Part shown: piece after piece, positions 2,171 through 62,904 of the stretch
Numbering within the stretch: position 1 is the stretch's first letter
How the letters are laid out: every line of letters starts with the position of its first letter
NCBI GenBank assembly: GCA_051294375.1
Contig: CM119263.1
Coordinates: 30,319,376-30,383,375 of the forward strand
Direction: 5' to 3'
Origin: Paraspadella gotoi
Lineage: Eukaryota; Animalia; Chaetognatha
Length of the DNA: 64,000 nucleotides
The notes under the pieces: generated by a model
The model's database searches: none
Told to the model about the DNA's origin: nothing
The model's input: only the letters and a program-made list of their open reading frames with translations
Made by a program: the position numbers and the translations under genes

Positions 2171-2220
2171 CTGTAAAGCGAGGTAAGTTAAACCCGAGAT
2201 ATCTTTTAATAGGGTAGTGC

Positions 2221-28154: not shown

Positions 28155-31100
28155 ATGGAGGGTCATCAACTGGAGAGTCCAACGGAGGAGGCTTCGGCGA
28201 TGATCAGCGGTCCGCCTCCGCAGATCAAGTGGATCAACGCCTCCGCCCTCTACAACCGGATGCAAGTCAATCCGCAGTCGCTGCTGCTCATCGACGTGAG
28301 ACCCGTCGCCGCTTTTGCAATCGCTCACGTCAAAGGTGAGTTCGATCGGAAGTCAATTCTGGCGAAACCTTACTATTAACCTCAAGGGGAAATTCGCTGG
28401 CTTACCGATTAAATATTACTGCTACACCTTTTCCCTTAAGTTCTTTATTCTTTATGAGCTGATTGGCAAATTAATTGGCAACAGCCAGAGACATTTTTCC
28501 AAGATAGAGACTACAGAGCACATTTCCTTGGTAACTAATACTTCGCGAGCTGGGGATTAAAAATTCAATCTGTTATCTCCTGCCATACTGTCCAGTATTA
28601 GTTAAAACGTTCTTTTCTTTCTTTCTTGAGAGTTACTTCTTATTAGCTGAAAACATTATTTTTCAAAAAAGTAATTGCTTTTTAAAATTAATCACTTTTA
28701 ACACAAAAAAAACAATATTTAAAAAGGAAAAATAATCTTATTACTCGAGAGATCGTCAAAAGTCAGGGATCTGGTACGGATCTCGTCAGAAGACAAACCG
28801 TTTATTGAGGCCAATTATCAAAACGATTTAATGATAATGTGAAAAACCATTTATTAGCCAAATAAAATAGTAAACACAATATATTTGAAATAATGATATT
28901 TATGCTAAGAGTGAATATGATAAAAATAATATATCGTATCAATGTAATGTGTTGAAAAATAATCCTTTGCGAATGAGTATAGGGACACGTAACGAAAATG
29001 TTATGACGATCCCTCGGTAAATTAAAAAAACAAGGTGATAAATTGTTGTATATGAAAAAATAAGAGAAAAAAAATAAGCGTCTTTACAACAAAAAACATC
29101 AGAAGGACAACAGTCGCGTTTATTTGGAGGGAAAGTGATACGAATGACGACGACGACCAAGAGAAAGGGAAAAACAAAATACCGTCACTCTCTTCACATC
29201 TCTCTCCCGTGAGATTAAATTTCTTATCCTGATTCACGAAGCTTTTCTCTCTCCCTTTTAAGTTCCATCTCACGAGTCAACACAATAGTTTCACTGGACT
29301 CGATATTTCCGCGGGAGAGAGAAGAGATCGAAACAATATTTTTTTTTCTCCCCTAACTTCACTTTTTTGTCGATCGACGTCGCAAAAAAAAAAATCCAAA
29401 TCACTTATTCTTGTGGAAAACGAATAAAAGAGAAGAGGATATTGTATGGAGAAACGAAAGATGCGAAGTTCCGACGAACGAATTGGGGAAAACCTCGAGA
29501 GCGTCAAAAAAAACAAAAAAAAGATGAGGCGAGGCGAGGCGGAATCATCCTTCAGCAGAACTTCCATCTGTGGCCGCACTCGTTGCAGAAGACGAACGTC
29601 GTCATCGGCTCGTCGGCCGATCGTGTCTGGAGTTGGTTGTACGAGCAGTTGCTCTTACCGCATCGACCGCACTGAGAGATTGGGGCGGGAATTGAGAAAT
29701 TTATATTTCTATATTAATTATTAATACTACAGAGCAGAAACCTACTCACCTTAAATAAAGAAGTAGTTGTGCCTCCTTGCTTCGCCATTTGGTGATCTTT
29801 TATGCTCTCCTTTGTGAACGCCTCCCTGATTTTTAAAGAGTGATGATTAGCGAGCTCCGATATTGACGCATATCGACTCACCCGAAGACTTACCTCAAAC
29901 CTTTCATTTCGGAAGATGCCATTTCTTCGGACGTCATCGTCGCCAGTTTTTCGGGGGATATTAAGCCGCACATCACATTGTGACTAAAAATAGATAAGTT
30001 TATGTATTTGTACTATTGTATTACTACATCTTTTATTACATCATTAAATGCCACGAATGACGACTTACCTGAGCATTGGATTCTTGGAATCTTTGAGGTT
30101 AAAAACTCGCGACCGGACGCAATTCTTGTACTTCATTCCCGTGTCCGTGAAATGATCGAATATCGCGTCCTCGATCTAAGAGAGACGAAACAGAACTAGA
30201 GTTTTTTTGTTTTGTTTTTGTTTTTTTTTAACCGAGCGAAGGGAAAACACTCCCCCCCCCCACACCTGTCCGGCCATGTCTTTGTAGTCGAGGCCTTCCG
30301 TCTCGACGGGCTTGTTGGCCTGCAATGCGTTGGAAATCATCTCGCGGCATTTTAGTCGGACAGGGTCGGACGTGTAGGACACCATGCCGGATGCTGTCGG
30401 TTTGGCTTATGAAAATGTGAAGAAAACAATTAATATTCAGAGTTACATATTATTGTATCAAGCTCGTTATAACCGCGCCAACCCAAACTACTCACTCTCG
30501 TCGGCGTCGTCTTTGGGTGTGGAGGCGCCGGAATCTCCACCCGGCGTCATCGAGGATTCGGCGTCGCTCTTTCTCTCCACTTCTTTAGCGCCGGCGCTGG
30601 ATTCTCCGGCGCCATCAGCCTTTGCAGGCGTGCCGCCGCCGCCGTCGGGCAAAAGTTTTTTCCAGGATTTGATAAGAGCTTTGGCGGCGGAGATGACCTG
30701 ATCGTCCTTGGTTCGCTTCCGGAGATTGTTGACCGTCATTCCGATCTTGGTTTTCTGAATGGCGGGAAAAAACAAAAGGGAGGATTCGTCGTGTTTTTTT
30801 CGCTGTTTTTTTTTTATTTGGAAGCCAAGAAGCGAATGAACATTTGCTTTTATTCAAAGGGTTCTTACACTGTCCACCACCTCATTCAACCCCTCTCATC
30901 ATCTCATCCCTCTTCAATCCTCTTCATCCACCTGCAAGACTTCAAGCGTCATCTCCGTCTCCTTGAGCCTCTTGAGGATGTCGAGGGCGGAATCGCAGTC
31001 GTCGGCTGAGATCTTCTTTTCCAGTTTTTTGCCCAACTTCATCACCTCCTCTTCCAGCCCCATTTTGTTTTTCCTTTGGTTTTTGGTTATTTAAAGCGAG

Positions 31101-34100
31101 GTTTTATTTTGAGGAGAGAGAGAAGAAAATATCTCCTTTTTTTAGGGTAGAGGGAGAAGTCAGGAGTTTGTTGCTGTCGCTAAAAAAGTTGTAAGTATCG
31201 AGGTTCAAAGGCCACAGAATACATATAATTAATTGACGATTTCGCCAAACAGATTTCCAATGAATAAAGAATTTGCACTTTCAACAAATAAAAACGGAAT
31301 CTACTGACGGCGAATAAGCGGTCCAAATTTTTCGAATAAGCGGTATATAATTTTTATATTGGTTGTACCAATTTCATATTATAAAAAAAATAATTACAGA
31401 ATCACCAATGAAACAAAAGGAATGCGGGAAAGACTTAGAGTCTTGACATATCGGCTGATGACTACGATCTATGGCCGAATAAAATATTACGGCGGACTAT
31501 CGCGATTCGATGAGCATTGAGATCGGAACTTCTAGAGTACGAATGGCCGCAGTCAGTGTTACAATTCGGTTGTCCTCAATTGGAGGATGCGGCGAGCGGA
31601 GCGGGGAATGGCTCGTCGACCGGCAACGTCCCCGCTTCTTCGATGCGAACGTCGTGAGTGGGTTTGTGGCCGGCGCCGACGTTGACTTCCTCGATGCGAC
31701 GAACGACGCCGAGACCGGACAAGACTTTGCCGAAAACCACGTGCTTACCGTCCAACCATGGGGTCGACGCTGGTGGGTAATCAAAGACTTCAAAATAAGT
31801 AACAATATGAATGTTATAATAATATTCAACGAGTCTCGCACCGGCGCAAATGAAAAACTGCGATCCGTTGGTGTCGACACCGGAATTGGCCATGGAGACC
31901 CAACCGGCGCCGACGTGGCGAAGGATGAAGTTCTCGTCGGCGAATTTGACGCCATAGATGCTTTGGCCGCCGGTCCCGTCCCCGCGGGTGAAGTCCCCGC
32001 CTGAAAACACCACAAGAGGAAGAGAGTGAGATAGAAATGTAAGATACATAATCAATGATTATTGATGGAAAATATTGATTAGCAATATTGTAAGACGGGA
32101 ATTCCTGAGGTGTTAAGAGAATAATTTTCCGAACTAATAATGCCCTTCGGAAACTCATAATAATCAAATACTAACATACCACCCCACAATAACCTTGGAT
32201 CATGAAGCCCTTAATGACTCGATGGAAGGTCGAGCCGCGAAATCCGCACAACTTGTTGGCGACGACGACTCGTCCAGGTTTTTTGTGACAAGTTGCTAAC
32301 TAAAGCGAAATTTGAGAAGGAGAGAAGTTAAGAAAATTCAACCCCTCGAAGGTGGAATCAATCGAGACACGAACCTCGACGAAGTTGTTGACCGTCTTGG
32401 GGACGGTGCGACCGAAGAGGCCGATCTCGATGCGGCCCACGTTGGCTTGGCCGTGGAAAATCTCAAAGTAGACCTGCGAGAATAAGCGATCTTCAGAACA
32501 TTGTTATTGAGGGGGGAGGTAAGGCATTTCCATTTCTCATCTTTTTCTGTCTTTCTACGTAGACGGTATAGTTATCTCATCCTTGGATTTGATTACCTTG
32601 TGAGTGACGAGGGGTCGCCCGTCCTTCGTGAGTCCCGTTCCATCATCTTCCTCTTTTGACCAGGGAAAATGGTACAAGACGAAGACTGTGAAGAGAAACG
32701 CTAATATTTTTAGTAATCATTAGTAATATTATTAGTAATAATGATACTGACACCGGATTCTCCAACCCACGGAGCATCCCACTTACCAAGGAGTAGGAGA
32801 CCGACGCAGACGGCGACCTTTAGCCGATTCGGCGAACGGAGCTTCAAGAGCGCCAGTTTATCTACGTTGCCAAGGTGATTTAAAGAGTTATCGACCCCTG
32901 GAAACCTCGATTAGATAATCTGACCGATGCTCTGGAGAAAGTCAGCCTCACATTTCTCGTTCATAAATATGAGTTTTTAATTTTCTAAGAATTTAAAAAG
33001 GAGACAAATAAAAATAAAAGAAAAACGCTTCCCTAAGTTTAGTTTGTAATATTTTTTTGTTTTTTAATTGCGTTGAACGAAGAAAACCTTTTGTATTACT
33101 AAATATAATAGATTATATTATTATCTATTATACCGAATCTCCTAATCACTTTCCTCGTTCCAACAAAGAGGTCGATCCGGCGACGGGAACCGAATTTGAA
33201 AAAAAAATAAAGGATGAAACTTGGAAGACCAGAAATGAAATTTGTCTTTAAAGAGAAAAACGAAGATTCGCGAGCGAATCGTTTTCTTATTATTAAAACA
33301 TTAATTAATTAGAATAAAAGAATCTCGAGCACAGGATTTTTTTCACATTCTTAACCGTTCGGCTTTAGGGAGACCGACGGCAAGCCGATGAAGCTTATAT
33401 GGCAGTTATATAACGAGCGGAAAAACACAATATATTCATGTATGTATAAGACGCTTTTCTCGCTCGACGGATATATCGTTAAAAACAATTAATATTATTA
33501 ATTCCTACTGCAATCAACGAGCAACGAGCGAGAATCGACGTTCGAGAAAAAAAAAAACCCCCAAAACAATAAAAAGGTAAAAAGGGACAGGTGCACGTGG
33601 AGAGATATATTGGTTGAACCAATTTAAAAGAAAGACACCGTCGGGAATTTAAAAGACACCAAGAAGTTTGTTTTCTTTTATCCAAGATAGTAAACGTCGT
33701 TGTTTGCACGACTTAAAGAAAAAATTAAAAACAATACTTTGGCGCAGAACGGGGTTTTGTATTTTTAACAGAATAAAAAAATGTCAAGGCGATGCGCAAT
33801 TCAATTTAAACTTGGTTGATTTTAAAAATTGTTTCTTAGAAGTCGTTTTGTTTTTGTATTCTTTTTTTTTTTGTTATGAATTAGTTTTGTTTACATTCGT
33901 TGTTCATCTAATGGATGACGTTGGGTTTTGAAAGGGAAGGCGGCGTGAGCAGCGAGCGTTTAAAACTCTTCGGGGGCGGCGTTTTCGTCTCCGTCGGCGG
34001 CCTGGGTCAACCGATTATATATGTAAGTTACAGTGACTCACCCAGCGATCGTTTATCTCCGCCCCCCACCACCTCACAACTCGACTTGCCTGAAAGCCCT

Positions 34101-37100
34101 CCTCGGTGGCGTAGAGGACTTCGGTGATCTGCCCGACCAAGAGGCCGATCTCGTCTTCGCCTTCTTTGTCCTGACACATGATCTCGATTGCGCGAAGTTT
34201 CCCGTAGTAGAAATCTCGTTCCTTTTCCAACGCTACAACCGAATTTTGCATCTCTTGCAACTGACGATTTCGAGGGGGGGGGGAAAGAATTGTTTATTTT
34301 ACTTTCGTCATGACGACACATAAAAATATCAAGCCGCACAACCTGTTCCTCCAGCTCCTTGACGACTTCGGGGTTGGGGCGGCCCTTCGCGACGCGGCTC
34401 TGCTGTTGCGGGGGGATCGACGCCTATTAATCGAAATCAAGATTAAACTTCAATATTATTTTATTCAAATTAAATCATATATAATTCCCCCCCCCTCCCC
34501 TTACCTGCGGCCGCTTCTGCGCCGCCGACGCTGAGGACGGCGCCTTCGCGAGCGGCGCCCGCGATCTTGCGGCGGGAGCGGCGGCGGCGGCGAGACCGCG
34601 AGGTTTGGCGCCGACGTCGACGTAGCCGCGGGCCTCGAGTGGGTCGTACTCCATCGATCCGTCGTAGTTGGCGTCGAAGAACTTCTTGAACCACTGCGTG
34701 TGTGAGGGGGGGGGAGGGGGGGAGGGGAGGAACGGGGATAATCATAAGAAGAATTAAAAAAAAAAAAAAACTTCTTCCTCACCTGAACGAACTCGAAGTT
34801 CTCCATGTATTTCCCTTTGACCAACTTCTCGATGGGGATGACTTTGTCGACTCCGTTCTTGTTGAAGCAGTTTTGAAGATGTTTGAAGTTGGAGATGTAG
34901 TCCGTCTCCAACTTGCTGTTGAATTTGATCTTTTTGATCGGGATGGTCGCTGAATGAACAACCGAAGACGAAGTTATAAAGCAATACCAACTAATAAGGA
35001 CTACGTTTAGAGAAAAACCTGGAAACAACATGTCCATGAATTGGCAATAGACGGCTCCGGTGCACAGTTGTTCGATCTTGCCGATGTTCATCTGAAATTG
35101 AAAGAAGATGTTAAACTCCCGCCTTTCCGCATCCCACCAACACCACACCCTTATCGTCGTCGCACCGAGAGGCTCTCGTTGATCCACATGAGGTAATCGT
35201 TGCGACTCAACGCCCCCGCGGTGACGACGGTGTTGTAAACATTGACGGCGGCCATCTTGGATTTTCGCTCGCGGAGAAGGGAGGGGAGGAAAAAAGGGGG
35301 AGGAGGTGGAGGATCGAGTGCTGAGGGGGATTGCGAAGTGGTGGTCGAATCTGATGCTGTACACACGGATTTGTTGGAATGTTAATAGATTTACACCTAA
35401 AAATTGTAAAAGATAACAAAAACGGATAAACAGCTCATTCCACAACAATGCCCGTCGAGAATAACAAAAAAATGGAAACCGAAATGACGGAGATAAAAAA
35501 GTTTATAAAAGTCAAAAGTTGAATTGGTCATCAGCACCGCTCGAACACTCTATAGAGGTCGTTGAGATTCGCCACATGGAGCACGGATCCGTCTGTCTCC
35601 AGTTTGGCCGGCGCCGCAAAGTCTCCGCTCCGCACGGCCCGAAACAAGACGTGCTCCACGCGCCAGGGCCACGCCCCTGGCGCCAAAGGGACCGTTTTGA
35701 CTCCGGCACCGCTGTCCACAAACTCGGGGTCGTCGGCGTCGTCGCCGCCCAACGGTGCCTTATTATTTAAATTAAGAAAAAACGATTATAACTCATTATA
35801 ACTCATTTGCATATTGAAAATGCTTCAAATAAGTGCAGCTTGAATCATGAGCTTCGGATGGCAAAGGGTCTTTGATATTGTAGTACGAGTTCATAATAAT
35901 ATTTTAGGGATGGTGTTCCTCACCTTGAAGGCATAAAACAAGGCCATCTGACGGCAAAAAGTGGAGAAGCAGAGTTTCTCATCTTCCCAATCTACTTCGC
36001 CGGCAGCGCGGAGGAGGAAGATGGGGAGGTGGTCGAGACAGGGCACGAAGTCGGGCAGGAGGAGAGGACTGAGAGGGAGGAAGAAGAAGAAGAGGGAGGA
36101 AAAGGAGGAAGAAATGAACACGAAGAAATCCCCTCAACTATGTATTTCATTGAGGAAAGCTCTCAGAAATGGCTTCCTCTTCACAATTAAATCAGTTGGG
36201 GAATCCAGTCTCATCACTGACACCCTAACCGCCGATCTTCGCATTTCACAATCTTCACAACTCACAGCGAGGTGAGATTCCCCCTCTCGTCGATATCCAC
36301 CGAAAAGTAGTCCAGGAGCATCTCGCGTCTCGACACCAAGAGATCGCGAACGAAGCCGGCGATCTCATCCTTGGCGCCATCCTCTGGGCCCCATCCCGAT
36401 GCCGGAAGGTCGAGCGCCAGCAGCGCCAGGTCGAAGATCGGCGCCGGCGTTGTCAGACGAAGGAGGGAGAAGTTGCCGAAATCACGGAGGAGGATTTGGT
36501 AGAAGAGTTCCTCCGTCGTCTGGGAGGACGAGGAGTCATTGAGGACGAAGAATTTACAGTTTTATTTATCGAATTTCGAGACTCCCAAAAATTCGAAAGG
36601 CAAAATTGATCCAAATAAATATTAATTAAAAAGAATCAANNNNNNNNNNCAACATGATAGAATAAAGATTCCTATGCGGCTAAATAAAATGACGAAATAA
36701 ATGTTATTATTACAGCTATATGTAAAATTAGATTATTAAAATGGTAAAATTCATAACATTCAGTATATTTGTTTGAAGCAGAAGAGATATGAAACTTAAG
36801 CATTACACTTCCCCCGCTCATCTCACCTTTTGAACGTTGATCAAATAGAGCGACGTCCCGTGCTGCAGCAAAGCCCTCTTCCGATTGACGCAGCCGACGA
36901 AGACGAATTCGGTGAACAAGGCAGTCAAATCGCTGCTCCGCTGCGCCTCCGCCTCCGCGCGGAGTTCGCGAATGCTGCGAAGTTTGATCATGCGCCGAGA
37001 TGTCACGTTGGTAGATGGGGCTTTTGACGATTCTGGGCCGCCCTTTGGAGCTCGGTCGGTGCCGATAGTCTCATGATCCGGGGCATCGTCCAGAGTTTCT

Positions 37101-40100
37101 TTCGAGTCCGTCGACGGGTTTGAATTCTCCGCATCGAGTCTCTTGACTTTTATTTCCTCACTTTCCCTCTTTCCTTCAATTCCATTAAATTCCTCCTTTT
37201 CGTCCATTTCAATTTCCACTTCTTTCCATTTACTTTCTATTTCCATTTCCTCCGTTTCGTCCACGAGTTTAGAACTCGAGGCCACTTCTTCCAAGTCATC
37301 CAGACCCTCGAGGGTCTTCGCGTCTTTCGACGTCGTCTCCGCCAACTCCTCCGTCCGCTCGGTCGCCTCACCCTTCTTTTTCACATCGAAAAAAGCGTCG
37401 AGTTTTTGAGATTTGCTGTCGGTCCTCACTAATTGATGATCGTAAACTTTTTTCTTGGCGGAGGAATCTGCCGAGGCGGCCGGCGCGGCTTCGTGTCTCG
37501 TCTTCGTCGGCAAGAGACTCTGTACGGCGAACTTTCGCGCCGACGAAGAGGAAAGAAGCTGCGACTCGAGTTTCTTCTCGATGATTTCGACGATCGAATC
37601 TGAAATGGAAAAATCGAAATTCATCGAATAGAAGTTCTCTAATGTCATTTGCATATCGTAGCAATGTATAGATGCTTTAGAAAAGCGTCTTGCTCACTTT
37701 TAAAACTCATCGCCCCTTTATACAGTATAAATACATAAATCTATTTTTGAGTCAAAACGATTCCCAAAAACCCCAAACTCGTTAAATCATGTTAAAAACC
37801 CAAACCATAAAAGATTTACCCTCGTGCAAAAAGTGAACTTCGTGTTTTGTCGGATGAACATTGACGTCGACGTTTCGCGAATCGAGAGTGAGAGAGAGAT
37901 AAGCGAAAGGATGAGATCCTTTGGGAAGAAGAGACGAGTACACGTTGGCGAGGGATTTGCGGATGGAGGCGCTGTCCACCAGACTGCATGGGGGGGGACA
38001 CAGACCATCAGTTTCACATCCGACCACGGAAAAATTCCTACCACCTCCATTACCCTTCCTACCGAGTACACAGACCATCAGTTTCACATCCGACCACGGA
38101 AAAAATTCCTACCACCTCCGTTACCCTTCCTACCGAGGTTCGAACTAATCTTGATCGTCGATCGCGTTTCTCACCGATTGTTGATGAACATGAGCAACTG
38201 CAGCTTCTTCGATTCGTAATTCGGGGACGAAACGAATCCTTTTAAGTTGAATTTAAATTTGTCCTCGACGATGTTCACCTTTGAAAGCAAATGAACAAAT
38301 AAGAATTTCACTACAAATTAACTATAACGGAAGAAGCGACTAATGAATTGTTACCTCGACCAAATCTTTCTCCAAGGCGATTCCGTAGATGGCGCGGATG
38401 TTCTCCCTCTTGGAGGCGTTGGCCGTCGTCTTGACGTCGGTGGAGGCGTCGCCCGACTTTTTGAGGGCGAAAGCGACGCCCGAGTTGTGGATGGCGTATT
38501 TGGTCACCACCTCCGCTGGATCAAGACAAATTGTTTCAATAGCAACAACCTTTGGCTTAAGGGGCTTCCTACCCTCAATGAAGCCGCCTGCCACTGGGGC
38601 GGTTACCCTAGGACGGTCTGGCTTTGCCAACACAGTGGGGATTCGTTAGAACGCACGGTTGGGATAGTGAAGTGTTAGGCAGTGTGAATATACCGCCACA
38701 CCTTTTCCATTTCATCATTCTCATTCTCACCAATTCTGGAATGTTCCTCGGCCGGATTGCTGAGCGCCTTCCGCCGAGTGGCCACGTTGTAGAAAAGGTC
38801 CTCGACGGTGATAACGGTGCCGACGTTTCCGGCAGCCGGACGAGGCTCGCCTTTGAGCACTCCGTCGGAATACGAGGCCTGAAAAACGAACAAAAATAGA
38901 GCAGCGGAAATTTTAATAGGGCCTCTCTTACAAGCAGCTTTGACTATCTAAATGACTCACCTTCCAACGGACTTACCTTCCAAGCGCATTTGGACTCTTT
39001 AGTCTTCGTGACGATGGTGACGTGAGCGACGTGACTGATCGACGCTAACGCTTCACCACGAAACCCGAACGTCCCGATAGACTGCGAAGAATGTCTTAAT
39101 CAGACCCTTTTCCGAGAAATGCTCCCGCTCCATCCTTTTAATTATAAAGAACCTGCAAATCCTCGAATTTATCGAGTTTTGAGGTGGTGAACCTTTCGCA
39201 AACGATCTTCATGTCCGCCTTCCCGATCCCGCATCCGTTGTCGCTGATCTGAAGGAGTTTCATTCCTCCGGATTTGATTGTCACGGCGATCGACGTCGAT
39301 CCTGACGTCAACCAAGATTCCTCAGTATAATTTCAATAGAATATGGGAAATTAATTTGAATTTGTATAATAAACATGATAGCTTCTGCAACCTATGTCTC
39401 ACAGTAAATTGTCATTTATATCTCAAGCTGACGATGTCCCTTTTTTCTCATTTGCATATTGCAATGAAAGGTAAAAATTAGATATCGTCCTGTTTGACCA
39501 GTCGCATTTCGCATTTCGCAATCGCACCTGCGTCGAGGGAGTTCTCCATCATCTCTTTTAAAGCGTTGGCGGGTCGTTGGATCACCTCCCCCGCCGCGAT
39601 CCGATTCACAACAGCATCCTCCAACTTCTTGATGGTTGGCACAGACGTTGTCGCCATCATTCGCTTATCACAGAAGACTAATTCTTTATCACCTCTTTAT
39701 CGCACACTAATGAATGGAGTTAACTTTTAGTCCAAGAACATGACAATCGCGACATGTTTGTCAGTTTTTTGCTTTAAAAAAAATCAGCAACAAGTGAAAC
39801 TATCACAGAATCGTAATATGAACTAGGAAGAGCCTAATAAAGCTACGGCCGACGTAAAGATGTAAAACTTGAAACCTTCACCTAACTAGGCATACCAAAC
39901 AACAATAATAATAAGGCTGGAATGTGAATAAATAGACTAGTTTTTTCCCGATTTTTGACAAATAAGAGAAGAAAAATGGCGAGGGAGTTACAAAGAGTTG
40001 AAAGCCCGCGTCACGAAGATTCTTCGTCTTTTTTAATAGTTAATCATTAACATTAATCAATCATCGTTTTAATTCTAACGTAACGCTTTAATCCCCTTTC

Positions 40101-43100: not shown

Positions 43101-46100
43101 GTCTGTGTCGACGAAAACGAAATGTTCCTTCGCTGTGGCGGCGCCGGCGTTCGTTCCATTAGCGACGCTTCTCTGACTCGATTTTGCATCAGACTGAAAA
43201 ATCGAAAATAAGATGAGTTAATTTAAATTTTAAATTCATTTTATGGTATCATAAATAATAACCGACCCCAGTTTCGCCTCCTTCGAAGCCCTCGGCCGTG
43301 ATCGGCCAAAGTCCTGGCGCCGATCCGCCCGCTTCTACCGGCGCTTCGCTCCCGGCCGCGTCGACCGGCGCGGCGTCGCCGGCGCCAGACTTTTTCTTGA
43401 CGCTCTTGACCGAATGGGAGGGCGACCACTCGAGAGCGGCGACGGTCGGGCACGACTTGGGCATTTGGCGAAGAAGGGTCAGGGTCTTCATGTCCCAGAG
43501 TTCGAAGGGGCGACCTGAGGGAAAAGCAAAGGGGGTTGGGGATAGGAAAGTGGAAAGAGGATAAACAGATTTTTGGGATAATATCCTGATGGGATAAATC
43601 TAACTTGCATATTGTAGTAACCTTTTTGATCATTTTTTATGAAGAAAACAGAAAACAGCCGAGAATGTCGAAGTACTAGTAGTATAATTGGTAGGCATAA
43701 TGTAATTTTTTTCGAATCGCTGTTGATGTTAAGTTTTAGTTACGTTTTTTATTGTTTAAAAACAACGCTAAAATTGAAAGAATATTTTTCGCGCTAAAGA
43801 AGGCTCTCATCACATCAGAGCCGAAACTTGTACAATACATCTACTACTTCGCTTTGTAACTGTCAAAAGATTAAAGGTGAATAAGTGTTAGTAAGTTAGT
43901 TACCTCAGCTGCGCATTTTTATGTCCTTTGTCATGTCGTTGTTCAGAATACTTGAGAAATATAGATAGTACAAGCCCACTTCCCACCTTTATAGACTAGT
44001 ATGAAGTACTGACGCATGTGGGAGACGCGGACGGCCTCCAGCGCCGCCTCCTCTGCCGCTTTGACGCTCGTCACGCGTCCAGTGTTGACGTCAACGAGGG
44101 AAAGTTCGTTTTTGACGGGAGATGGGGAGGAGGAGGAGGAGTAGGAGGGAGGAATGATGACGCAGAAGGAGAGGAAAGATCGAAGCGTCACCCATTCAAC
44201 GCCCTTTAAAGATAAGGAAGCATAATACGCTAAAAATACCGTTGACATTGTTCACGAACCCGGGATCATCACCGACCTTAACCGCCGCGGTGTGCAGCGA
44301 AAATTCAAAGGCTTGAATCCCCGTAGAAAGATTATAAATCTGCACTGCGCCGGTTCGGGTCCCGACTGCGAGCAGCGGCTGGTAACTCTCGATGTTTTTC
44401 GTCGTCAGCGGCGGACACATTTTCAGAACGCAGACGCCCGCCGCCGCGCCGCCGCCGCTGGGGACGCCGGGGCCGATGGGCGACGACAGAGCAGGATTGA
44501 GGCCGGCCAGGAGCAGCTGCGGACGGCCGGGTTGAAGCAGGCGTTGACGGAGGGTCATGACGGGCGGGCGATGGGCGGAGGAGTCTCGAGAGTCGTCCTC
44601 GGCGTCGTTAGGTCCGGACGTCAGGTGCCAGAACATCGTGCGCCCGTCGGAGAGAAGGAGCGACAGGCGATCTTCGCTGACTGGGGAACAGGCGAAGCCG
44701 AAGACGTCCAAGTGCCGAGTAAGACGGAGGGGATCTTTGGAGAGAAAAGTATTTAATTAAATGAAGTAAAGGTTTAATATTAGTAATTAATAAGGACTTA
44801 TGTAGTATTTACCAGAAAAGCAAAGCGTCTCGTAATTCATCTCCTCGTCGCCGTCGGCGGATTTCGTCGCCGCCACTCGACGCCGCAGAGATACGACGCC
44901 GTTGTCATGGAGACAGAATACGGCGTCGCTTTGACGACAGGAAATGACACGGACGAACGAAGCCCCGCCGCGTTCGAGATTGATGGCGCCAACCGTCTGT
45001 CATTTAAAGACAAAACTATTTTATTATACAAACACTATTGACATAAGCTTATTATTAATCTAATCCTCCCCCGAAACGCACCTGGTTGATACCCAGATCC
45101 ATGACGAGGATCTCCTTGGGATAAACCATGAGGAGGTGTCGACGAACGGCTCGATGGTAAGTCAGTTGGAGACATTCGTTGGGGACGACAAAGTCTTCCA
45201 ACACTAGAAAAGGGGGAGGGTAAAAGATGAAGAGGTTCGTCTTCGTTTCACATCTCGTGGACGTCGAGTCCTTTTCGTCTTACTCCTTCCGGATTCCGAA
45301 TCTCCCGACACCAACATTCGCATTTTGGATCGAAGCGAAGTTTCTTTTCGACGTCGATCCATAGATCCTCCAGCGGCGGATCCTTTTTTAAAAAGAAGTA
45401 AAGTTTCCTTACCCTGGACCAAAAACAGGACCTGCCTCCGATTTCATATTGTTTAGCTGCACTTCAATCGCCATACTCACCAGCAGTAGCGGCAGCGACG
45501 TAGAGTTTGTCCCCATTGGTTGGCGGGCAACGGCCAATCCCGAAGTCCTCAACACAGAGGAGTCCATCGGCAGCGAGAAATGTAACTCGTGCGCCGTCGA
45601 AGGGATCAAAGGCGAAGCGGGTCAGAGGGTCGCTGGAAAAAATTTAAGAGTTACACGTCAAATCGAGAATACCACTTTTGCCACAACTACGATTTTTTTT
45701 TCCTACCTGTAAGTTTTCTTCCAAATCTTGGCCCCCGAGTCGGCGTTCCACAGAATCACCGTCGAGGGGGCGTGGAGCGCGACGAGGAGATCATGGGACG
45801 CGTCCTGCACGGAGGCCAACCAATGGAGGTCGGTGACGGGAGGCGTCGAGGCGACCGACGACGCCACCGGCTCTGAAAACTCGGCCTTGACAGACGCTTG
45901 GACCACGTCCCATATCAAGATTCGGCCCTGGAAGTGACAGAGGGGATTGCAAGAAAACGAACATCAGATCCTCTATTCACAAGGACTAACCTGAGCGTCG
46001 GCGGCGGCCAGCGTCAACGCGTAAGGATTAGAGAGGTCGTGGTGGTAATTCTCTCTGGCCCACTTGACGGCGACCACGGGACTCTTGTAGCGCTCCAGGA

Positions 46101-49100
46101 CCTGGATGACCTGCACCGTTTCGGGGTCCAGCACGACAACCGTCGACTGGCACCCGTAGGCTAAAAGGTTCGAACCCCATCCCCAGTCCACGGCGCCGCG
46201 GTTGGCCTTGCTCAGTGCGCCGGGCAGAGCGCACAAGGGGGTCTTCATCGTCGTTGATTGAACCTTCTTTGTTTTTTATTCTTTCTTTAAAGAAGCGAGA
46301 GGAAAGACTATCTTCCTCGATTCGATCGCCACATTTTGTAAATCAAATCCAAGTCAACGATTTTAATCCCGAATTTTCTGAAAGCAATATCTCACTTAAC
46401 AACTAGTTCAAAAATAAGAAAACAACGGCTCTAAGCGAAATGATTTACTAAAGTAGAAAAATAGAGTGATTTCGACAGAAGAGGATTTTAAAATAAGTCG
46501 TCCAAGGCTTCGACGCTTGATTCACTCGAACTCGTTCAAAACTAAAACTATCAACAATTCAACATTCTACATCAGAAATCTTTTGAGCCAAAAGAAACTT
46601 CTCGGCAAGCGTCTCGCTTCGATCGTCAAACTCCCTCCGACAATGATCATCTCACTACCGGAGCTTCTCGACGAGCAACTTGGCTCCGGGAACGTCCGAC
46701 GCCTCCAGCCGCCCCATTTCCGCCTTTAAAGCCGTTTTTAACCGTTCCGCCTCGCCATCGGCGCCACGCTGCTGCGAGACTTGCAGCAGCGCCAATACGA
46801 CGAAGCAGCCGCGGTTGATTCGAGTCCACGAGACGATCGAGTCGAGAGAAACGCGGGCTGAAAGGCGAGAAGCGAAGGCCGGGTGGGTGAGAAGAAGTTT
46901 CTTCACGCAAAGATGGCCGCCTAAAAAAACAAGAAAAATAAGAATTAAAACAAATGAAAAAAGAAAAACGTTATCTTAATAATAAAAAATAAGAAATAGG
47001 ACATTCACCCGCGTCCGCGACGGGATGCTCCTCGTTAGTTTCTTCGAACGGCGCCGCTACAAGATCGATGACTGCGTCAAAAGCCGAGCCCACTTCCGGT
47101 GGAAGGGCGTCAAACGCCACGTCCGCGCCCTGGTTACCGTCGACGACGCCCTCCAGGATTGTATAGAGGGCGACGGCGCCGGGTTTGGAGGCGAGAAGAC
47201 GAGCGGCGTTGGCGGCGACGTGGCGAAGGAGATGAGGTAGGGAGGCGGCAGCGAGTTCGCGGCGTCGGACAACGGGGTCTTTCTTCGAGGCGGCGTTGCC
47301 ATCACCTGAACATTAAGAGTGGCGTTTGTGAGGTTTCCTTCAGCCACACCTCCCCTTCCTTCCTCATCCAAACTCACCATCCTTTAAAATGGCCAACAGG
47401 TCGGGATGAACGTGTCGGGAGTCGCGGTGGTGCACCAAGTAGAAGAGGACCGTCCGCCCGTGCTTGGAGGCGATGACGGCCTCGAGGGATTCCGGCGACG
47501 ACGCCAACTCTTCCACGAGTGACTTGGACATCATCTTCGTGTCGTCGGTCACGTCGATGGCCGCGAGGAGGACCTGGGATTGTGATAAGAATTTTCTTCG
47601 ACAAAACTATTAAGATGAAATGCGGAAGGCAATCAACTAAAAAAATTGTATTAGTTTCATAATATTATTGTTTTTTAAAGTATCTGACCGATAAGAGAAG
47701 AGGAGCCAACATATTCTTTGTATTCTTTGATCACTTTTGGATACATTTGTTACTAAAAAGACATCTTAAGTTTTCTATGATTAGAATAACAATTAAAAAA
47801 GTTAAAATAATTTAAACTGAATAAAAAACGATTCAAAAATTTTACGTTCAACGTTGTTATCTGCAATATGCAAATAAGATTAAAGAGTCAATTGTTACCT
47901 GATACCCGTGCTCGTTAGTGGCAATGGTGACCACGTGACCTTTGAACGACTTAAGAATGACTTTTCGATCTTTCGCCGTTCCGTGCCACAAAGCGTGCAT
48001 GGCGATTCGCGCGCCAACGTGAGTGTGAAGGACGTGCACGACGGCGTCGCGAGTGCTCTCGATCACTTCCTGCCGCAGTTCGGGTTTGCACTGAAGGAAG
48101 AAAGATGAATTATAAAAATAATAAACTAATAATTATTAAAATGATATTAAAGCCTAAATTAAGATCTCTCCACACCTTTGACACTCTGAGAAACTCCAGT
48201 GTCGCCGCCTGCACGACTTGCGTGGTGAACGACTCCTTGTCCGCGTGACCCAATATCTTCCTCTTCACGTGATCCAATATGGAGTCTCTCGCTTCCGGTT
48301 TGGCGGCGAATAGCGCCTCTAGCGTCTGATGCTCCTCCGTCTTGTGAAAGGCGTAGGAGGGTCCGTAAAATTCTTCGACGAGAGTTCGACGTTGAGTCGC
48401 GTTGGTAAAGTTGGAGACGGAGTAGTCGAGAACCTGGACCATGAAGATTTCGTGAATGAACAACAATCATTTAACATTTTTGTTCGGCAAGTTTTCTTAT
48501 TTTCCTCACCGCCGAAGCGTCGGCGTGTTTGGCGATTTCGGGGACTTTGTCTTTGAAGGCGGCGACGACGACGTCGCGTTGCTCTTTTGTTCCGCGATCC
48601 ATGATTCGTTTGACGACGTTTTTCGCGTACTTGTTCTTCGACATCGCAACCTGGGGGGATAACCGGCGAAACGAAAACGTCCATGAAATGCCATAACTAT
48701 CGCCATAGATTAAGAATCTCACCAAATCTTCGCCTTTGATTTCTTGGAAAATGGCGTCGATCTGATCGCGGGTCGCGTGTTTGATGAGGCATTGGATCAC
48801 GCGTGAACAGTCGTGCATGAAGGACAGAGATCGGATGCGACCTTTGAGAATTAATAACTTTTAAACAAATTGATAAAATTGGGTTTTATTTTATGGAACT
48901 CGTTTAATTCTTTTTTACATTTTGTACCACATCTCACCTTTAACCTTCTCGAACAACTTCCCGCACAACTCCGTCCGCTTCTCCTCTTCCAAATTCTCCC
49001 TCCTCAACACCTCCCAAATCCGCTTCAATTCGACCGCTTCTCCCCATTCCTCGTCTCCCATTTTCCGTTTCTGCCTAAAGGCCTTTCGCTCCTTCTTCTT

Positions 49101-52100
49101 CATGGCGCTCAACTTGAGCTGATTCTCCGAGAGAGTCTTCTTCTTGAAGACCTTCTTATAGACCCGAGCGCTGACGCCTTTGGGCTTTTTCTTCTGCTCC
49201 CCAGCAACGGCCTTTTTGGCGGGCGACTTGGACTCGGCGTCGACGAGCCGCTTGGGCTTTTTGGCGGGCTTCTTCTCCGCGACGTCGGGTTCGTCGCTGT
49301 CCTCTCGTTTTCTTTTGTCGCCCTTGACGCCGGGCGAGTGTGCGGCTTCAATCGGGAAGGAAGTGACGTCCATGGTTGGAGTCAAAACAGTCGCTTCTTT
49401 TTTTTTCTTCGTCGCCATTTTCTTTTCTTTCTTGGGTTGAAGAACGATGTCGCCAGGGTCGACCGACTTGGCGGCCTCCGCCTTCCCGCCTCTCAGTTTC
49501 TTCTTTTTCTTCTTTTTCGTCGTCGTCGTCGTGTCATCGCCGATCTTCTCGACCACGAGATTGACGCCCTTCTTCCCGCCCTTTTCGTCTTTCTTAAGAA
49601 GGACGCGGTGGCCTTTGACGATGGCGCCTGTTGAATTGAGGGCGCGCATGATTTCTCTCTTTTGTTTAATCTGAAAGGAAATAAAACAAAAGATAAATAA
49701 GAATGAGTTGTAACAATGGGCAAAACCGACTTCAAAGTTTCAAGACGAACCTTCTGCTTCAGTTTGGCGACTTTCTTGTCTCCATCAAAGTCGAGTGTCT
49801 TCCTAGCCTCATCAGCGTCGCCGTCGCCGCCGCCGCCGCCGCCACCCTCAGAAACTCGCTTCTTTAGATTCGACTTTTTGCCGACAGAGTCTTTCTCTTT
49901 GGAGGGAAGACCCGAGGTGGACGATGACAAGGACATCTTGCCTGGAGGCGGGGAAGAGTGGAGATGACTATTTATCGAATTGCCTTACCTTCAACCAAGC
50001 CTTACCTTCGTAAAGCATGACTTTAGGACTGAATTTGACTTTTCTCCCTTCATTCTCGAGATTGAGGTGAATTCCTTTCTTCGGCGTTTTCTTCGTCGGA
50101 GTCTTTTTTGTCGGAGTCTTTTTTGTCGGCGTCTTTTTTGGCGATCCAGCCTTTTTTTCCGGCGTCGATATCACAGACATTTTTTACGGATTTTAGAGTT
50201 TTAACATTACTACTAATTTACTAGTAATATGAAAGTCTATTAAAATACGTAGCACGTATGAAATATTGGTACCTACGTACTAACATGAAAATACAAATTA
50301 AGAACTCGTAACACTCAGAAAACATTTTTTATCACAATTAAACTATATACATGTATGTATCACAGAAACCTCAGTTGACACGATTCATGATTTCACCGTC
50401 GAGTTCCTCGCATCAATAGAAACGGCGCCGCCCATCGACGACGCCGGCTTCAAAAGAACCACCGGCGCCAAGGAGACGGCGCTGGCAGCGTCGTTCGGCA
50501 GCAGCATCCGCGGCACGGCGGAGACGGACGACGCTCCTGCTGCCGCGTTTACGTTCAGAACGGGAATTGTGAAAGCGAGGAAATTGTGGACGGGAATCGC
50601 GGCGGTTGGTAATGGGATCGTGGCGGTCGTCGTCGGTACGTGCAAGGCGGTTGTCGGTAAAGGGACCGGAGTTGTTGGTAAGGGGTTGAGATTGCTAGGC
50701 ACAACAATGGGCTTTTTCGTTACGGAATTAGCAATGGAAGTAGTCATAAGACGAGATGGTGGAACGAATTCTCCAGTCGGTCTGTCCACTTTCTCTCTCA
50801 CACTTTCTCTTTCCAATTTCTCGCGATTCAGTCGATCTGCCGATCTTTCGATTCCGATTTCGGAATCCAAGGCCGAACGCGCGTTCGAATCCACGATTGG
50901 ACTCGTCCTTTCTTGCGCGGTGGTGACGGGGCGCGTCCTTACCCTCGCCCCTTCCTCCTGCTCCTCTAACCTTCCCTCTCCACTTTTCCCATCGTGCGTC
51001 GCCTCGTGAATCCTCAGCGCCTTCGAGCTCGAGTATCGTCTCTCGCACACTCGACATCGCAACTCTTTTCCTCCTTCGTCGACTCCGTGCGCCCTCGCCG
51101 CGTGCTGCGCCAATTTCTGCCGCGCGCCGAAGGCCTTGCCGCAGACGCCGCAGGAGTGCGGCCGGTGAACTCGGGCGAGATGGTAGGCGAGGCTGTTCTT
51201 GAAGGCGAATGCGGCGGAGCAAGTGGGACAGCGATGAATCTTTGAGGCGGCGGAGGCGGTGGATTCGCGAACGATGAGGAAGTATCTACAGAAGGGGGCA
51301 TTTTATAAAAGGGAACTAATAATATTAGGACGTTAATATCAATTTATGAAAATAAAACGTACTTTTTAGAATTCTTTGAGATTTTCTCCTCGTGCACGCT
51401 TTCGTGACTTTTAAGAGTTCGCGCAGTTTTGCACGTACGACCGCAGATGCGGCATCTATAGATTTGCTCGGTGTGCGATCTAAATCGTTAAGATACAAAT
51501 TATAGTTACATTAGTAATTATTGAAGGTCAACAAATTAGACGCGAATCGCCATCCTCCCAAAGTCACCTCCGATGTGCATTGAGCGAGGATCTCCACCGA
51601 TAACTCGCGCCGCAGTCTTGACAGACGAAAGGCCGTTCGGACGAGTGCGTCCGTTCGTGCGTCTTTAAATCGTGGCGCGTGTAAAAACGTCTATCGCATG
51701 TAGCGCACGCGTGACTCAGCTTTCGGTTATGGACGCGCCAGTTGTGTTTCCAGAGTTTTGTTTTGTCGGGAAAAGAGAAGGAGCAGACGGAGCAGGCGAG
51801 TGGAGCGACGGAAGAGTTTAGAGAAGCCGGAGGAGTTGCGGGAGTGACGGGATTGGGAGGAGCGGAAGAAGTCGTTACTTGGGACTTTGTTCTCCCAACT
51901 CGTTGATTCTCACGACTCCTTATTTTACGAGATGAAACTGATTGTGTTTTCCTTTGGCCTTCGTCGCTTTCTGAAGCGAATCTTAAGCGGACAATATTCG
52001 AGTGAAGATTCCGTTCCAACGATGAATCTTCTTCGATCTTTTCTCTCTTCGTTGTCTCCATCTTTCTCATCTTTCCAAAGTTCATCTTCTTTGAATCCAG

Positions 52101-54525
52101 ATTCTTTTTCTCTTCCAAGTCCTTTACTTTTTCTATCCTTTTGCTTTTTCTGTTGGCAATTTCAACTCCCATAGCATCGAACCTGGTATTTAATGTTTTT
52201 TTCTTCTCTGCCATCGAAGCAGATTTTTTATCAAAATCCTCGTTTCCCCCTGGCGTCGCCTCCCCGTTCCACATCTCCACTCTCCCGCCCCTCGTCTCTT
52301 CCACGCACTCGACGAATCTCCGATGCAAGACGTCGACGATCCTCTCCAGATCTTCACGCTCGAGACGTCGGACGCCGCGACATTCGGTCGTCGTCGCGAT
52401 GGCGAGGAGGGAAGCGTGGGAGGTGGAGAAAACGTCGGGCCAATGGTGAAGCATCTTGGGAGAGAAAGTTTTGAATAAAAATCATTATTATAAATTTTTG
52501 TTTTCATTAATAACAAGAACGATACATACTTAAAAATTCATCCTTGAAGCTGCATACCTTTAAAATTAGAAACTTTTCCGCGAGCGCCCGCAAAACTTTA
52601 TTTTCGGGCAGACATTTCTCCACGGAGTGAAGAGTCATGATTGTCTTCTTGTCCTAAATTGGATGAGACCAAAATTAGATCATCTAATAAAAAATATATA
52701 TTGAAACAGAACAAACCCATGGCACTTGGAATAATTTACTACTATATACAAATGAGTAAGATGAACTCAATCTCATACCAAGATATATAGTCGGGCATTC
52801 ACAACGCCCCATGGCAATCCTATTTCAAATCTTAAACTCGCCCTATTCTCTCCTTCCCTTATCCCGTCCCCCCCCCCCCACATTTCAGGAGCGATCAACA
52901 TCGATTGGGCGCGGAATCTTCAACGCGTCGACTTCGACGTCGAGGACGAGATCGTCAACCTCGTCGCCAATCTCGAGCTCGAGACTTCGCAGGCCAAATC
53001 TCTTTTCGAGGACAGGGCCAATAGGGATATCATTCTATATGGAGGTGAGCAACGTCCCAGATTGATAAAAATTTCGTAATATGTAAATTATTCGCTAGGT
53101 AAATTATAAACAGAATGGCACAGAGAATTTGGCATTTTTCAACATTACAATATCTGAATAGCACGAATCCTCCCCCCCCCCATAAAAACCCACAGGAGAG
53201 CAAATGGTCCAACTCCGCAACTTGTTCAACAAATCGTCGCCCATCACGCCGACGACGACGATGACGACGCAGCCTCGAAGCGTCAACGGGTTGATCGGCG
53301 ACGGCGGCGACGAAGAAGACGACGAAGACTGCGTCACGCTGCTGACTGGATCGGAGTTGGCTTGGTCCTTCGCCGAGGCGCTGCTTCACGACCTGGCTCT
53401 CAACACTCCAAGGGCGGGTTCGTGAAACGCAGAGCTTGGAGACCAAATGTCAACTATTTAATTAATTTATATATAAACTTAAAATCCTTCCCCCCTCCCA
53501 TGTCCCCCCCATACCCGCGTCCCCAACAGAAGGCTACCACAACGGATTCTGCGGCGCCAAGCCACCTTCCTTCCCCGCCGGCGCCAATGGCGATGTCGGC
53601 GCCCTCGGCGCCCTCGGAGGCGGGGTCGGCGGAGAGAAGGGCGTGATCAGAATCCTGGAGGGCGGCTTCGATCTCTTCGTCGACTCAAAACCTTTTTTGG
53701 TCGTCAATCATCAAAGGTTCACGGACGAGGATTATCACTTTCCGTCTGGTGAGAGAAAAAGCGGCGATGAAAACGATCAGTTCGAACGAGGATGTTATAT
53801 CTTTGACGAGTTAACAACGCCATCTTCGTCACCCCTTCCCTCATTCTTCCTCTCAGAGATCATCGAAGATTTTCTCTACCTCGGCGACGCAGATGTGGCC
53901 TCTAAACTGGGTCCCCTCAAAGAGCTCGGGGTGGAATACGTGATCAACGCGACGGCGGACGAACCTAATCACTTTCCCGACGAAATGAAGTATCTCAACG
54001 TCGAGATCGAAGATCGACCAGGAGCTGACATCGCCCAGCACTTTCAAAGTAAGGATTTGACCCAGCGAGCTCTCGCCAGCGATATCTCTAGTAAAAAAGC
54101 TCATCTTCTTTTCAAGGAGTGCTGGCGTTTTTGGAGGAAGCCCAACAGATGTCCTCCAAGGTGCTCGTCCACTGCGTCCTGGGAATGTCTCGCTCGCCCA
54201 CCATCGTCATCTTCTATCTCATGATGACGAGGAGGTGGAGTCTCAGCAAATGTTTCGAATTTGTTTTCCATCAGGTGATTCGAATGAGATTTCTTTTTTC
54301 AGTTTTCAATTCATTAGCATGACTTAATATGTTTTCCAGCGACCGTGCATCTGGCCAAATAGCTCTTTCCTGCGGCAGCTTATCGAGCAGGAGGCGCTGC
54401 TGTTCGGCGCGGATCGAGTATCCATGCGGATCCCACCGTCGGAATCCGAGACCGACGATGAGTGCAACTTTAAATACCAATGGAGGGATCCAGCGACGAG
54501 AGTTTGGACCAACGTCCTCAACTAA
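28155..54525 (+). CDS. MAP-kinase-phosphatase-type dual-specificity phosphatase (rhodanese + DSP); exon 1 28155-28335, remaining exons 52889-54525
   Basis: Exon 1 ends [19 protein letters not shown]|GTGAGT (phase 1); 52889 resumes after TTTCAG with (G)AINIDWARN. Later exons give [11 protein letters not shown]|[10 protein letters not shown], the intact catalytic loop [10 protein letters not shown] and [14 protein letters not shown]. Confidence 0.8.
29552..31063 (-). CDS. TCEA1: Transcription elongation factor S-II (TFIIS)
   Basis: [29 protein letters not shown], zinc ribbon [39 protein letters not shown]. Confidence 0.95.
31576..32964 (-). CDS. Cyclophilin B/C-like peptidyl-prolyl isomerase with N-terminal hydrophobic anchor (start uncertain)
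   Basis: VTHK|[35 protein letters not shown]|[40 protein letters not shown]. Confidence 0.9.
33960..35255 (-). CDS. MAPRE1: Microtubule end-binding protein EB1 (RP/EB family)
   Basis: [23 protein letters not shown] domain [37 protein letters not shown], terminal EEF*. Confidence 0.93.
35531..39660 (-). CDS. MLH1: DNA mismatch repair protein MLH1
   Basis: [65 protein letters not shown], terminal LYRVFERC*. Confidence 0.96.
36163..36217 (-). ncRNA. Candidate box C/D snoRNA, MLH1 intron
   Basis: GTGATGA-GACTGGATTCCCCAA-CTGA (D')...GTGAAGA (C')...AAGCCATTT-CTGA (D). Confidence 0.7.
37998..38136. repeat. Two tandem ~70-bp units in an MLH1 intron
   Basis: acacagaccatcagtttcacatccgaccacgga(n)ttcctaccacctccrttacccttcctaccgag occurs twice. 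Confidence 0.85.
40088..46248 (-). CDS. WDR11: WD repeat-containing protein 11
   Basis: [91 protein letters not shown]. Confidence 0.93.
42092..42128 (-). mobile_element. Both termini of a collapsed DIRS-type copy flanking the N gap in a WDR11 intron
   Basis: AATT-tatggttcca[N]acatgatag-AATT matches the element left end (AATTtgtggttcca) and the right end/ICR junction (acatgatagAATT). Confidence 0.75.
46655..50180 (-). CDS. PUM3: Pumilio homolog 3 (Puf6/KIAA0020 family)
   Basis: Lys-rich N-terminus, [75 protein letters not shown]. Confidence 0.9.
50385..52638 (-). CDS. C2H2 zinc-finger protein (about 7 fingers)
   Basis: [75 protein letters not shown]. Confidence 0.85.
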
Positions 54526-60446: not shown

Positions 60447-62904
60447 ATGGTAAGAAAATCGAATTGAATTGAATTGAATTGAATGCCATTTCTATTCCCT
60501 AAATTTTATTTTTAATCTTTTGAAAAAAAATTAGCCTTCGAGTGGCGAAGCGTCCGTCGCTACGGCGAAATCTTTTTCCTCCCGGCGTTCTGTCGGTCGA
60601 TACAGAACCGTCGCTCACGCCTCCAAAGTGGACGAGGCTCTCTTCGGTCGTCCGCTCAACAAACAGGTTCGAACATTACCATTTTCCGGACCATCAATCA
60701 ATCAATCACTCATTCGATCCTTCTCCATACAGTTCATCGATCAGCGTCGCAAGGAGAGAATGAATCGAGAACTGGCCGACTTTCCCATCATCCAAGATGC
60801 GCTGGAAAAGAAGCAGCAGCGTCAGGCCGACGCAGATCGGGAGATCTACAATGTCGTCACTAAAGATCTCGTCCGGAAACTCAAGTCAGTGAAATCGGAA
60901 TAACGTGGGAGGGATTAAATATTCTTTTAGTGAACTAAAAAGGTTTCGTTAATTTTTGCTTGTGAATAGGTATTGGAGAAATCATACATGTGTGGCAGCA
61001 AGACTTAAAGCTGCCTCACTGCTGTCCATCCTCAGCCTCGTCTCAATGGCTGAGCAGGCTAAATCATCTCATTCCATCCGTGCGTCCCGGGTTCAATCCC
61101 CGGGTATCCCGGTTCTGGCTTAAATGTGACGGTGCCGGTATAAACATGCCAGTGACAGGAGGCGGTCACTGAGGGTCCGCAGCCCCTACGCCAGTTAGTG
61201 AGATACCCCGCGCCCCGGGTATCACAGGCTATCCTCCCGTTGCCATAAGTGGTGAGCCCTACTATCGAACACGCAACCGTTGCGCACCGTGCGCCCACGC
61301 TTACATCGCTTAGGGTATGCATATCACGCCTATGCCCTACTTCTCTGGTAACGCTCCAGACTCGCTCGCTCGCTCGCCCGCTCGCTCTCACTATGGCAAT
61401 GAGATCAAAACCTTCTCTCAGACATCTCCTCAGGATTGAGGCCCCTGTGGAGAAGTCTGGTGGGGGGATCCTGTGGCAGCAAGACTTAAAGCTGCCTCAC
61501 TGCTGTCCATCCTCAGCCTCGTCTCAATGGCTGAGCAGGCTAAATCATCTCATTCCATCCATGCGTCCCGGGTTCAATCCCTGGGTATCCCATTTCTGGC
61601 TTAAATGTGACGGTGCCGGTATAAACATGCCAGTGACAGGAGGCGGTCACTGAGGGTCCGCAGCCCCTACGCCAGTTAGTGAGATACCCCGCGCCCCGGG
61701 TATCACAGGCTATCCTCCCGTTGCCATACATGTCAATATCATGCACTTGAAAAAGTTTATCGTCGCTTATCCGATTTCCTTTCTTCATGACATTGTTTAC
61801 TCTGAAAAGTGAATTGTTTTCGAGTACAGGGTGCCGCGTGAGGCGCCACCGGGACACAACGTCATGATCGACGCGCTTGAATTGGGGAGAATCAAGAACA
61901 ACGCGCGCGTCATCACCGACGCAGAGATGGAGGCCAACGCCAAGAAGCTCAAGGAAATCAACGAGCTCATGGAGGTTTGTTGTAGTTGTTGTTGTTGTCG
62001 TTGAAGTGTGAGGACGACAGATGGGGGTTAGGTTTCGATCATAATAAACAAAATACGATTGAATGTTTTCGATTTCCGCTTCTGTTTTCCCTCAGCTGCC
62101 ACCCGAGGGCGGTTGCCCGAAGATGCTGTGATCTTTCGCCTTTGAGCATTTCTTAGAAATCGATATTGATTTTCAAATCTTTTTTTATCTGATGAGTCAA
62201 TGAGGGGAAAATACAAACGGAAATCGATTCTTCGAAAATAGTGACTTTTTTTTTTGAAAGGAACTTTAGAAATTAGACATTAGATGAATTATGTTTCTTA
62301 CTCCAGCATGACTGAGTATCTCTTTCATTCCTTCTTTCTTGTTGTTTATCTTTCTTTCTCTCTCTCTTTCTATCCATTATTGTTCAAATCCTCCCACACA
62401 TTCCCCACCGCCACCATCCCCTTTGCCCCAATCTCCCCTCCGTCACCCCCACAGGACCAAGCCCACGAACGCAAGAAGCAACTTAAGGACTTCGACCTCG
62501 TCCGCGGTCACAACGAGCAGCTCAACGACCTGGAGGAGGAGGCGAAGAAGAAGGCGGAGGCGCTGCTGCAGATGGCGGAGCGGCAGCGGATGGAGCAGGA
62601 GGACGAGATCAAGCATCTCAACGAGCTCATCCAAGAAGCCAAGTGTCACGCCATCAGGGACATGCAAGTCGTCGAACGACAGCAGATCAGCAACGAGATC
62701 AGTGAGGATTAATTGCAGTTTGATTGGACTGATTGATCGAATGGTTGAATCGCTAATTGATGACGTAATTGATGATGTAATGATTGACTGAAGTGATGAA
62801 TGATTGACTAGTTGATTTACTTATTCGTTTACGTATGTTTGATTAAAATATTTATTGGTTGATTTATAGAGTTGATTGAGGGATCAATTGAATCTTTTAT
62901 CTAT

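Follow-up and report, generated by a model that had tools for sequence, protein, structure and literature searches.

A gene of the chaetognath Paraspadella gotoi that encodes a rhodanese domain followed by a dual-specificity phosphatase domain very likely carries seven other genes within its first intron. The window analyzed here is a stretch of 64,000 nucleotides from contig CM119263.1 (assembly GCA_051294375.1, positions 30,319,376 to 30,383,375), and in it all seven genes lie on the minus strand, opposite to the host, and are wholly enclosed by a pair of host exons that read in a single frame. Judging from the DNA sequence, we estimate a probability of about 70% that the host is made as a single long transcript, from which the block is removed in cis as intron 1. 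The layout is known in kind, with annotated parallels, and is unusual in size and cargo.

The host model consists of seven exons with canonical splice sites, which together form a frame of 1314 nt and 437 residues with a single, terminal stop codon:

28155–28335, plus strand: host exon 1, with the ATG and the N-terminal part of the rhodanese (CH2) domain (profile positions 15–40), ending in a phase-1 GTGAGT donor
28336–52888, plus strand: putative host intron 1, 24,553 nt, GT-AG, 53% of it antisense coding sequence
52889–53044, plus strand: host exon 2, continuing the rhodanese domain (profile positions 43–69), no start codon
53196–53417, plus strand: host exon 3, a low-complexity insert; holds the first internal ATG after exon 1 (residue 116)
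53530–53748, plus strand: host exon 4, likely the end of the rhodanese domain and a short linker; its Atlas look-alikes combine PF00581 and PF00782, which is a lead only
53857–54048, plus strand: host exon 5, N-terminal part of the phosphatase domain (PF00782 positions 1–60), with Asp312 as candidate general acid
54117–54274, plus strand: host exon 6, catalytic loop HCVLGMSR (residues 342–349); PF00782 positions 64–110, 59.3 bits, over the cut-off
54340–54525, plus strand: host exon 7, with the TAA stop; an AATAAA follows at 54689

The sequence-only reading that preceded this work had proposed the exon coordinates, the phase-1 join and a second exon lacking an ATG, and all of these hold in the open 437-residue model. 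The exon at 52889 is preceded by a C-rich pyrimidine tract and CAG, and the open frame that extends upstream of it contains no in-frame ATG. The remaining five host introns are 65–151 nt long. Intron 4 (53749–53856) is 108 nt long and contains no in-frame stop; as this length is divisible by three, a transcript retaining it would encode 36 additional residues where the phosphatase domain begins.

The genes between host exons 1 and 2 are as follows:

29552–31063, minus strand: TFIIS, 7 exons, 307 residues; PF01096
31576–32964, minus strand: a cyclophilin with an N-terminal hydrophobic segment; PF00160; first coding exon uncertain
33960–35255, minus strand: EB1 (MAPRE family), 7 exons, 270 residues; identified as EB1/EB3 by PDB sequence
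35531–39660, minus strand: MLH1, 11 exons, 787 residues; identified by PDB sequence; a 10-N gap (36640–36649) lies inside the intron 36520–36826
40088–46248, minus strand: WDR11, 19 exons, 1257 residues; identified by named homologues; a 10-N gap (42106–42115) lies inside the intron 41838–42211
46655–50180, minus strand: PUM3 (KIAA0020), 10 exons, 855 residues; identified by PDB sequence
50385–52454, minus strand: a C2H2 zinc-finger gene (Pfam C2H2), 3 exons, 634 residues; 434 nt from host exon 2 in head-to-head orientation

Models open from ATG to stop were obtained for TFIIS, EB1, MLH1, WDR11, PUM3 and the zinc-finger gene, that is, for six of the seven; for the cyclophilin there are three candidate first coding exons, all of which start from the ATG at 32964. 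What had been described as seven complete housekeeping genes thus stands as seven minus-strand genes, while the housekeeping label does not extend to the zinc-finger gene and the beginning of the cyclophilin is uncertain. Inner coding sequence makes up 12,954 of the 24,553 nt, leaving out the 5' exons of the cyclophilin, and the spacing from stop to start is 204–512 nt at five of the six junctions between inner genes. Exons in this region are GC-rich and the genes are intron-rich. The earlier observation that most other introns here are shorter than 300 nt was borne out both by the short downstream introns of the host and by 50 of the 54 introns modelled in the inner genes (median 85 nt, maximum 472); 53 of these are GT-AG, and the sole non-GT donor is the GC of the last EB1 intron (34001–34090). 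In a quick tree, WDR11 is 59% identical to its homologue P0001 and 40–41% identical to seven other homologues. The plus strand of the interval had been said to hold no gene, and this agrees with our scan, in which a single frame-keeping internal exon candidate passed the splice-score cut-offs (49205–49288, antisense to PUM3 coding sequence). No Rfam family was found in the 64-kb window.

That exon 1 and exons 2–7 are parts of one gene is supported above all by how well the first two exons fit each other. We scored the join with a home-made rhodanese profile, built from 40 bacterial domains selected by PF00581 after exclusion of 80 near-identical GlpE loci. Against this bacterial profile, the two exons joined reach 29.9 bits, compared to 11.3 for exon 1 and 3.0 for exon 2 alone, so the score on the joined protein, a check set beforehand, favors the join. 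It is also colinear: exon 1 covers profile positions 15–40 and exon 2 positions 43–69, with the junction residues filling 41–42. As controls, exon 2 was joined to every plus-strand GT or GC donor upstream of it that lies in phase 1 behind an open frame of 15 codons or more, and exon 1 to every AG downstream of it that adds at least 10 codons. Within the 64-kb window, exon 1 ranks first among the 2517 donors for exon 2 (next 15.0 bits, median 3.1), and exon 2 ranks first among the 1380 acceptors for exon 1 (next 21.4, median 12.0); the runner-up acceptor at 21.4 bits has a negative acceptor score. A six-frame scan of the 2358 open pieces of the window likewise returned exons 1 and 2 as the top two, on complementary parts of the profile. 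Pfam and PDB searches with exon 1 or exon 2 singly gave no rhodanese match (none to PF00581), and in the Atlas a rhodanese-like cluster is the third match for exon 1 at 0.82, again a lead only.

Codon usage and splice signals bear on the same question. Exon 1 scores 0.65 per codon with a GC3 of 0.73, matching the codon use of the inner genes, and coding-type usage ends at its limits, with −0.41 upstream of the ATG and −0.11 past the donor. The open frame upstream of exon 2, by comparison, scores −0.28, which is non-coding codon use. The exon 1 donor reaches 12.4 bits, and none of the 54 inner-gene donors is higher; the exon 2 acceptor is middling, with 37 of the 54 inner acceptors scoring higher. 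The reciprocal best join, together with codon use that is of coding type in exon 1 only from its ATG to its donor, supports the earlier view that the two pieces form one gene.

An apparent nesting of this kind could also arise if the block had been wrongly placed inside an ordinary short intron during assembly. The assembly is indeed gapped, and it contains a tandem duplicate of ~5 kb (1–5026 and 5783–10778, 97.7% identical, with many small indels) beside a 25-N gap at 5028, which is probably a gap-filling or assembly artefact of the first 11 kb. However, each of the two gaps inside the block falls within a gene whose exons keep order and phase: MLH1 stays in frame from one side of the gap at 36640 to the other, and homologues of WDR11 can be aligned colinearly with the sequence flanking the gap at 42106. 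Misjoins at these gaps, which the sequence-only reading had named as grounds for dismissing the nesting, are therefore unlikely. Moreover, both boundaries of the block are gap-free, two misjoins would be required, and the flanks have no repeat in common (direct matches between them reach at most 25 nt, and none has E < 0.3), so we regard a misassembled block as improbable. Next to each of the 10-N gaps, and on the same side of it, stands a similar stretch of 11 bases (36650–36665 and 42116–42130), which suggests one repeat family behind both.

If the host is indeed spliced in cis, transcription would start from a promoter near 27.8–28.1 kb and read through the entire block, the very strong donor of exon 1 would commit the transcript to splicing, and cryptic signals antisense to the inner genes would be skipped. 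The intron of 24.5 kb is ~290 times as long as the local median intron, AATAAA occurs 32 times on its plus strand, and the exon 2 acceptor is equalled or exceeded in score by 31 of the 1398 AG sites there. No strong recursive splice site was found among the 47 AG-GT sites in the interval. The arrangement may be tolerated because all inner genes are antisense, their real splice sites being invisible to the host transcript. Nearly ubiquitous activity is to be expected of the inner genes, so the host is probably expressed weakly or in few cells.

The same protein fit is predicted by trans-splicing, in which the exon 1 transcript ends before TFIIS, exons 2–7 are transcribed separately and the halves are joined as RNA. 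Each half would then use a promoter common with its divergent neighbor (for exons 2–7, the zinc-finger gene), the polymerase would never cross the block, and the gene would be one broken by rearrangement and rescued at the RNA level. Six AATAAA or ATTAAA hexamers in the 1.2 kb past exon 1 and a divergent start codon 434 nt from exon 2 are consistent with this, and mod(mdg4) and lola are precedents (PMC4387717). The best duplex between the intron ends has a predicted energy of −30.0 kcal/mol against −26.4 ± 2.1 for shuffled sequences, but this is marginal (2 of 40 shuffles were as low) and was picked as the best of many windows; U1-binding pseudo-donors in the 5' spacer are unremarkable, the best matching 8 of 11 positions, and they are poor donor matches. 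Cis-splicing is the simpler reading, because the exons lie on the same strand and in the right order, and we consider trans-splicing unlikely.

A third possibility is that a recent rearrangement split the host, leaving exon 1 stranded and as yet undecayed, so that a short form starting near exon 2, or nothing at all, is made. In the 600 nt upstream of exon 2 there are eight short candidates that run from an ATG to a donor, one of them closing at 52755 on a GTAAGA donor, which would give an intron of 133 nt; candidates shorter than 15 codons fell outside the ranking of 2517 donors. A nearby first exon is thus possible, the internal ATG at residue 116 offers a further start, and for ceh-10/polq-1 it is documented that the nested gene drives a short transcript of its host (PMC12274878). 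Yet exon 1 retains its ATG, open frame, codon bias and top-scoring donor, breakpoint repeats are absent, and a short form could coexist with the long form without refuting it. We therefore take a broken host to be quite unlikely, and think that a short form without half of the rhodanese domain may be made beside the long one.

The predicted protein combines an N-terminal rhodanese/CH2 domain (29.9 bits with the home-made bacterial profile) and a C-terminal DSPc domain with an HCX5R signature, as PF00782 is over its cut-off in exon 6 and the loop HCVLGMSR keeps the catalytic Cys and His. This is the domain order of the MAP kinase phosphatases (MKPs), in which the rhodanese/CH2 domain also precedes DSPc and HCX5R is also kept, so the earlier label "MKP-type" stands as far as the layout goes. 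It does not stand for the kinase-interaction motif (KIM): according to PMC8907265, consecutive arginines are needed for MAPK docking and MK-STYX is without them, and no RR, RK, KR or KK occurs in the host protein before residue 362, where its only basic pair lies within the catalytic domain. We do not assign the host to the MKPs on this account, and the absence of the docking arginines likewise weakens the idea of a MAPK-feedback gene; the delay that the sequence-only reading proposed for such feedback finds no support. The pseudophosphatase STYXL1/MK-STYX was considered as well, its cluster being the first Atlas match for the frame of exons 4–5 (0.86, 137 of 256 features, a lead only). It shares the domain order and the lack of docking arginines with the host; in STYXL1, however, the catalytic His and Cys are replaced (PMC8907265), whereas both are intact here, and we do not assign the host to STYXL1 either. 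Its rhodanese region also contains a low-complexity insert of some length, by which the host differs from both the MKP subfamily and STYXL1. Its sequence indicates that it is probably an active rhodanese–dual-specificity phosphatase without a KIM/MAPK-docking motif. No full-length orthologue was found in searches with exon 1, exons 4–5 and exon 6: none of 15 candidates from the protein search with exon 1 was related and none of 979 with the exon 4–5 frame, while a metagenome scan with exon 6 reduced 364 pattern matches to one locus, an unrelated intron-less contig. A tblastn search of plasmids gave no match.

Some indication of how the layout came about is provided by the surrounding genes. 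Upstream of exon 1, on the minus strand, are a coiled-coil gene, with which exon 1 stands head-to-head, and what we take, from reading the translations, to be DIS3 and ribophorin I. From ~11,400 to 58,400, nearly all genes except the host share the minus-strand orientation, and several of them are separated by 200–500 nt from stop to start, a spacing for which operon-like transcription may be considered. The block looks like part of one co-oriented run of genes, with exon 1 set into a spacer. Because the seven inner genes are unrelated, tandem duplication is not sufficient to explain them, and a block rearrangement or a move of the exon is needed. We see about even odds that exon 1 was moved or copied upstream, engulfing a resident gene run, as against the seven genes jumping in; the co-orientation of the block with the upstream genes and the head-to-head position of exon 2 and the zinc-finger gene favor a move of exon 1. 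A remnant of exon 1 near exon 2 was not found.

Several other elements were observed in the window. A decamer, ATGCAAATGA, occurs six times in introns and spacers (18710, 26350, 35803, 37645, 39448 and 40427) with similar flanks, and its copies are probably what is left of a small dispersed repeat. In the ribophorin I-like gene, a 175-nt repeat with 90% identity is present in two introns (12012–12185 and 13669–13845), and a Patched/sterol-sensing exon lies at 5470–5700 on the minus strand. An intron of a plus-strand TPH-domain gene, presumably CFAP45-like by our reading, holds an element of 738 nt (60991–61728). Its two 257-nt direct repeats are 98.4% identical and enclose a short central segment, the ends of which are primer-site-like and purine-rich; CATG is found on both sides, and the whole resembles a young miniature LTR element (TRIM).

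Multi-gene antisense nests are also annotated in Caenorhabditis elegans, where the inner genes include laf-1 and swsn-3, which are core genes, and pho-9. These three belong to the 10 mixed antisense genes listed for the host cox-6B, while nhr-27 has 9 mixed antisense genes and amdh-1 has 9 antisense paralogues, srg-1 to srg-9 (PMC12274878 Table S1); they are the three hosts with at least seven antisense genes among the 567 pairs of sheet 1, counted by eye. That three hosts have 9–10 antisense genes, of mixed kinds in two cases, weakens the claim that an arrangement like the present one is rare. Like our host, cox-6B and nhr-27 belong to a compact genome and each extend over a large number of antisense protein-coding genes that are unrelated to one another, but their nesting is defined by coordinates, and the table is silent on whether a single intron is involved or a coding exon lies beyond the inner genes; here, one intron cuts a domain inside a conserved motif and holds seven multi-exon genes. 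The srg array in amdh-1 likewise places many antisense genes in one host, but it grew by tandem duplication, whereas the seven genes here are unrelated.

In Drosophila, ~10% of genes are nested, 71% of these antisense, inner genes are small and intron-poor, and multi-gene nestings exist (PMC5174743, PMC3814207); nested genes of mammals favor long 5' introns and are more tissue-specific (PMC11694760). Opposite-strand bias, multi-gene nesting and nesting in long 5' introns are documented in PMC5174743 and PMC11694760, and the opposite strand, a long 5' intron and several inner genes per host are common to all three settings. Yet the inner genes of flies and mammals tend to be small, intron-poor, often young duplicates and tissue-specific, and their hosts are large (PMC5174743, PMC3814207, PMC11694760), whereas those found here are old and conserved, have at least 55 introns and amount to ~10 times the coding length of their host. 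What is unusual is the presence of seven unrelated, conserved, multi-exon genes in one domain-cutting intron among tiny introns. No published report of this nested gene set was found among the listings of the open-access literature searched. PMC10282587 counts 2432 nested genes in the sponge Aphrocallistes and mentions that some gene finders disallow nesting. Such programs would truncate the host, and cases of this kind may therefore be undercounted in compact genomes.

If confirmed, the locus would be a natural test of transcriptional interference as a limit on nesting, since host transcription would run against seven genes that converge on it and are probably always active, and past 32 antisense polyadenylation hexamers, in a region where introns are ~85 nt long. 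It would also add a second route to nesting, in which a host exon engulfs resident genes, beside the fly-type insertion of young duplicates.
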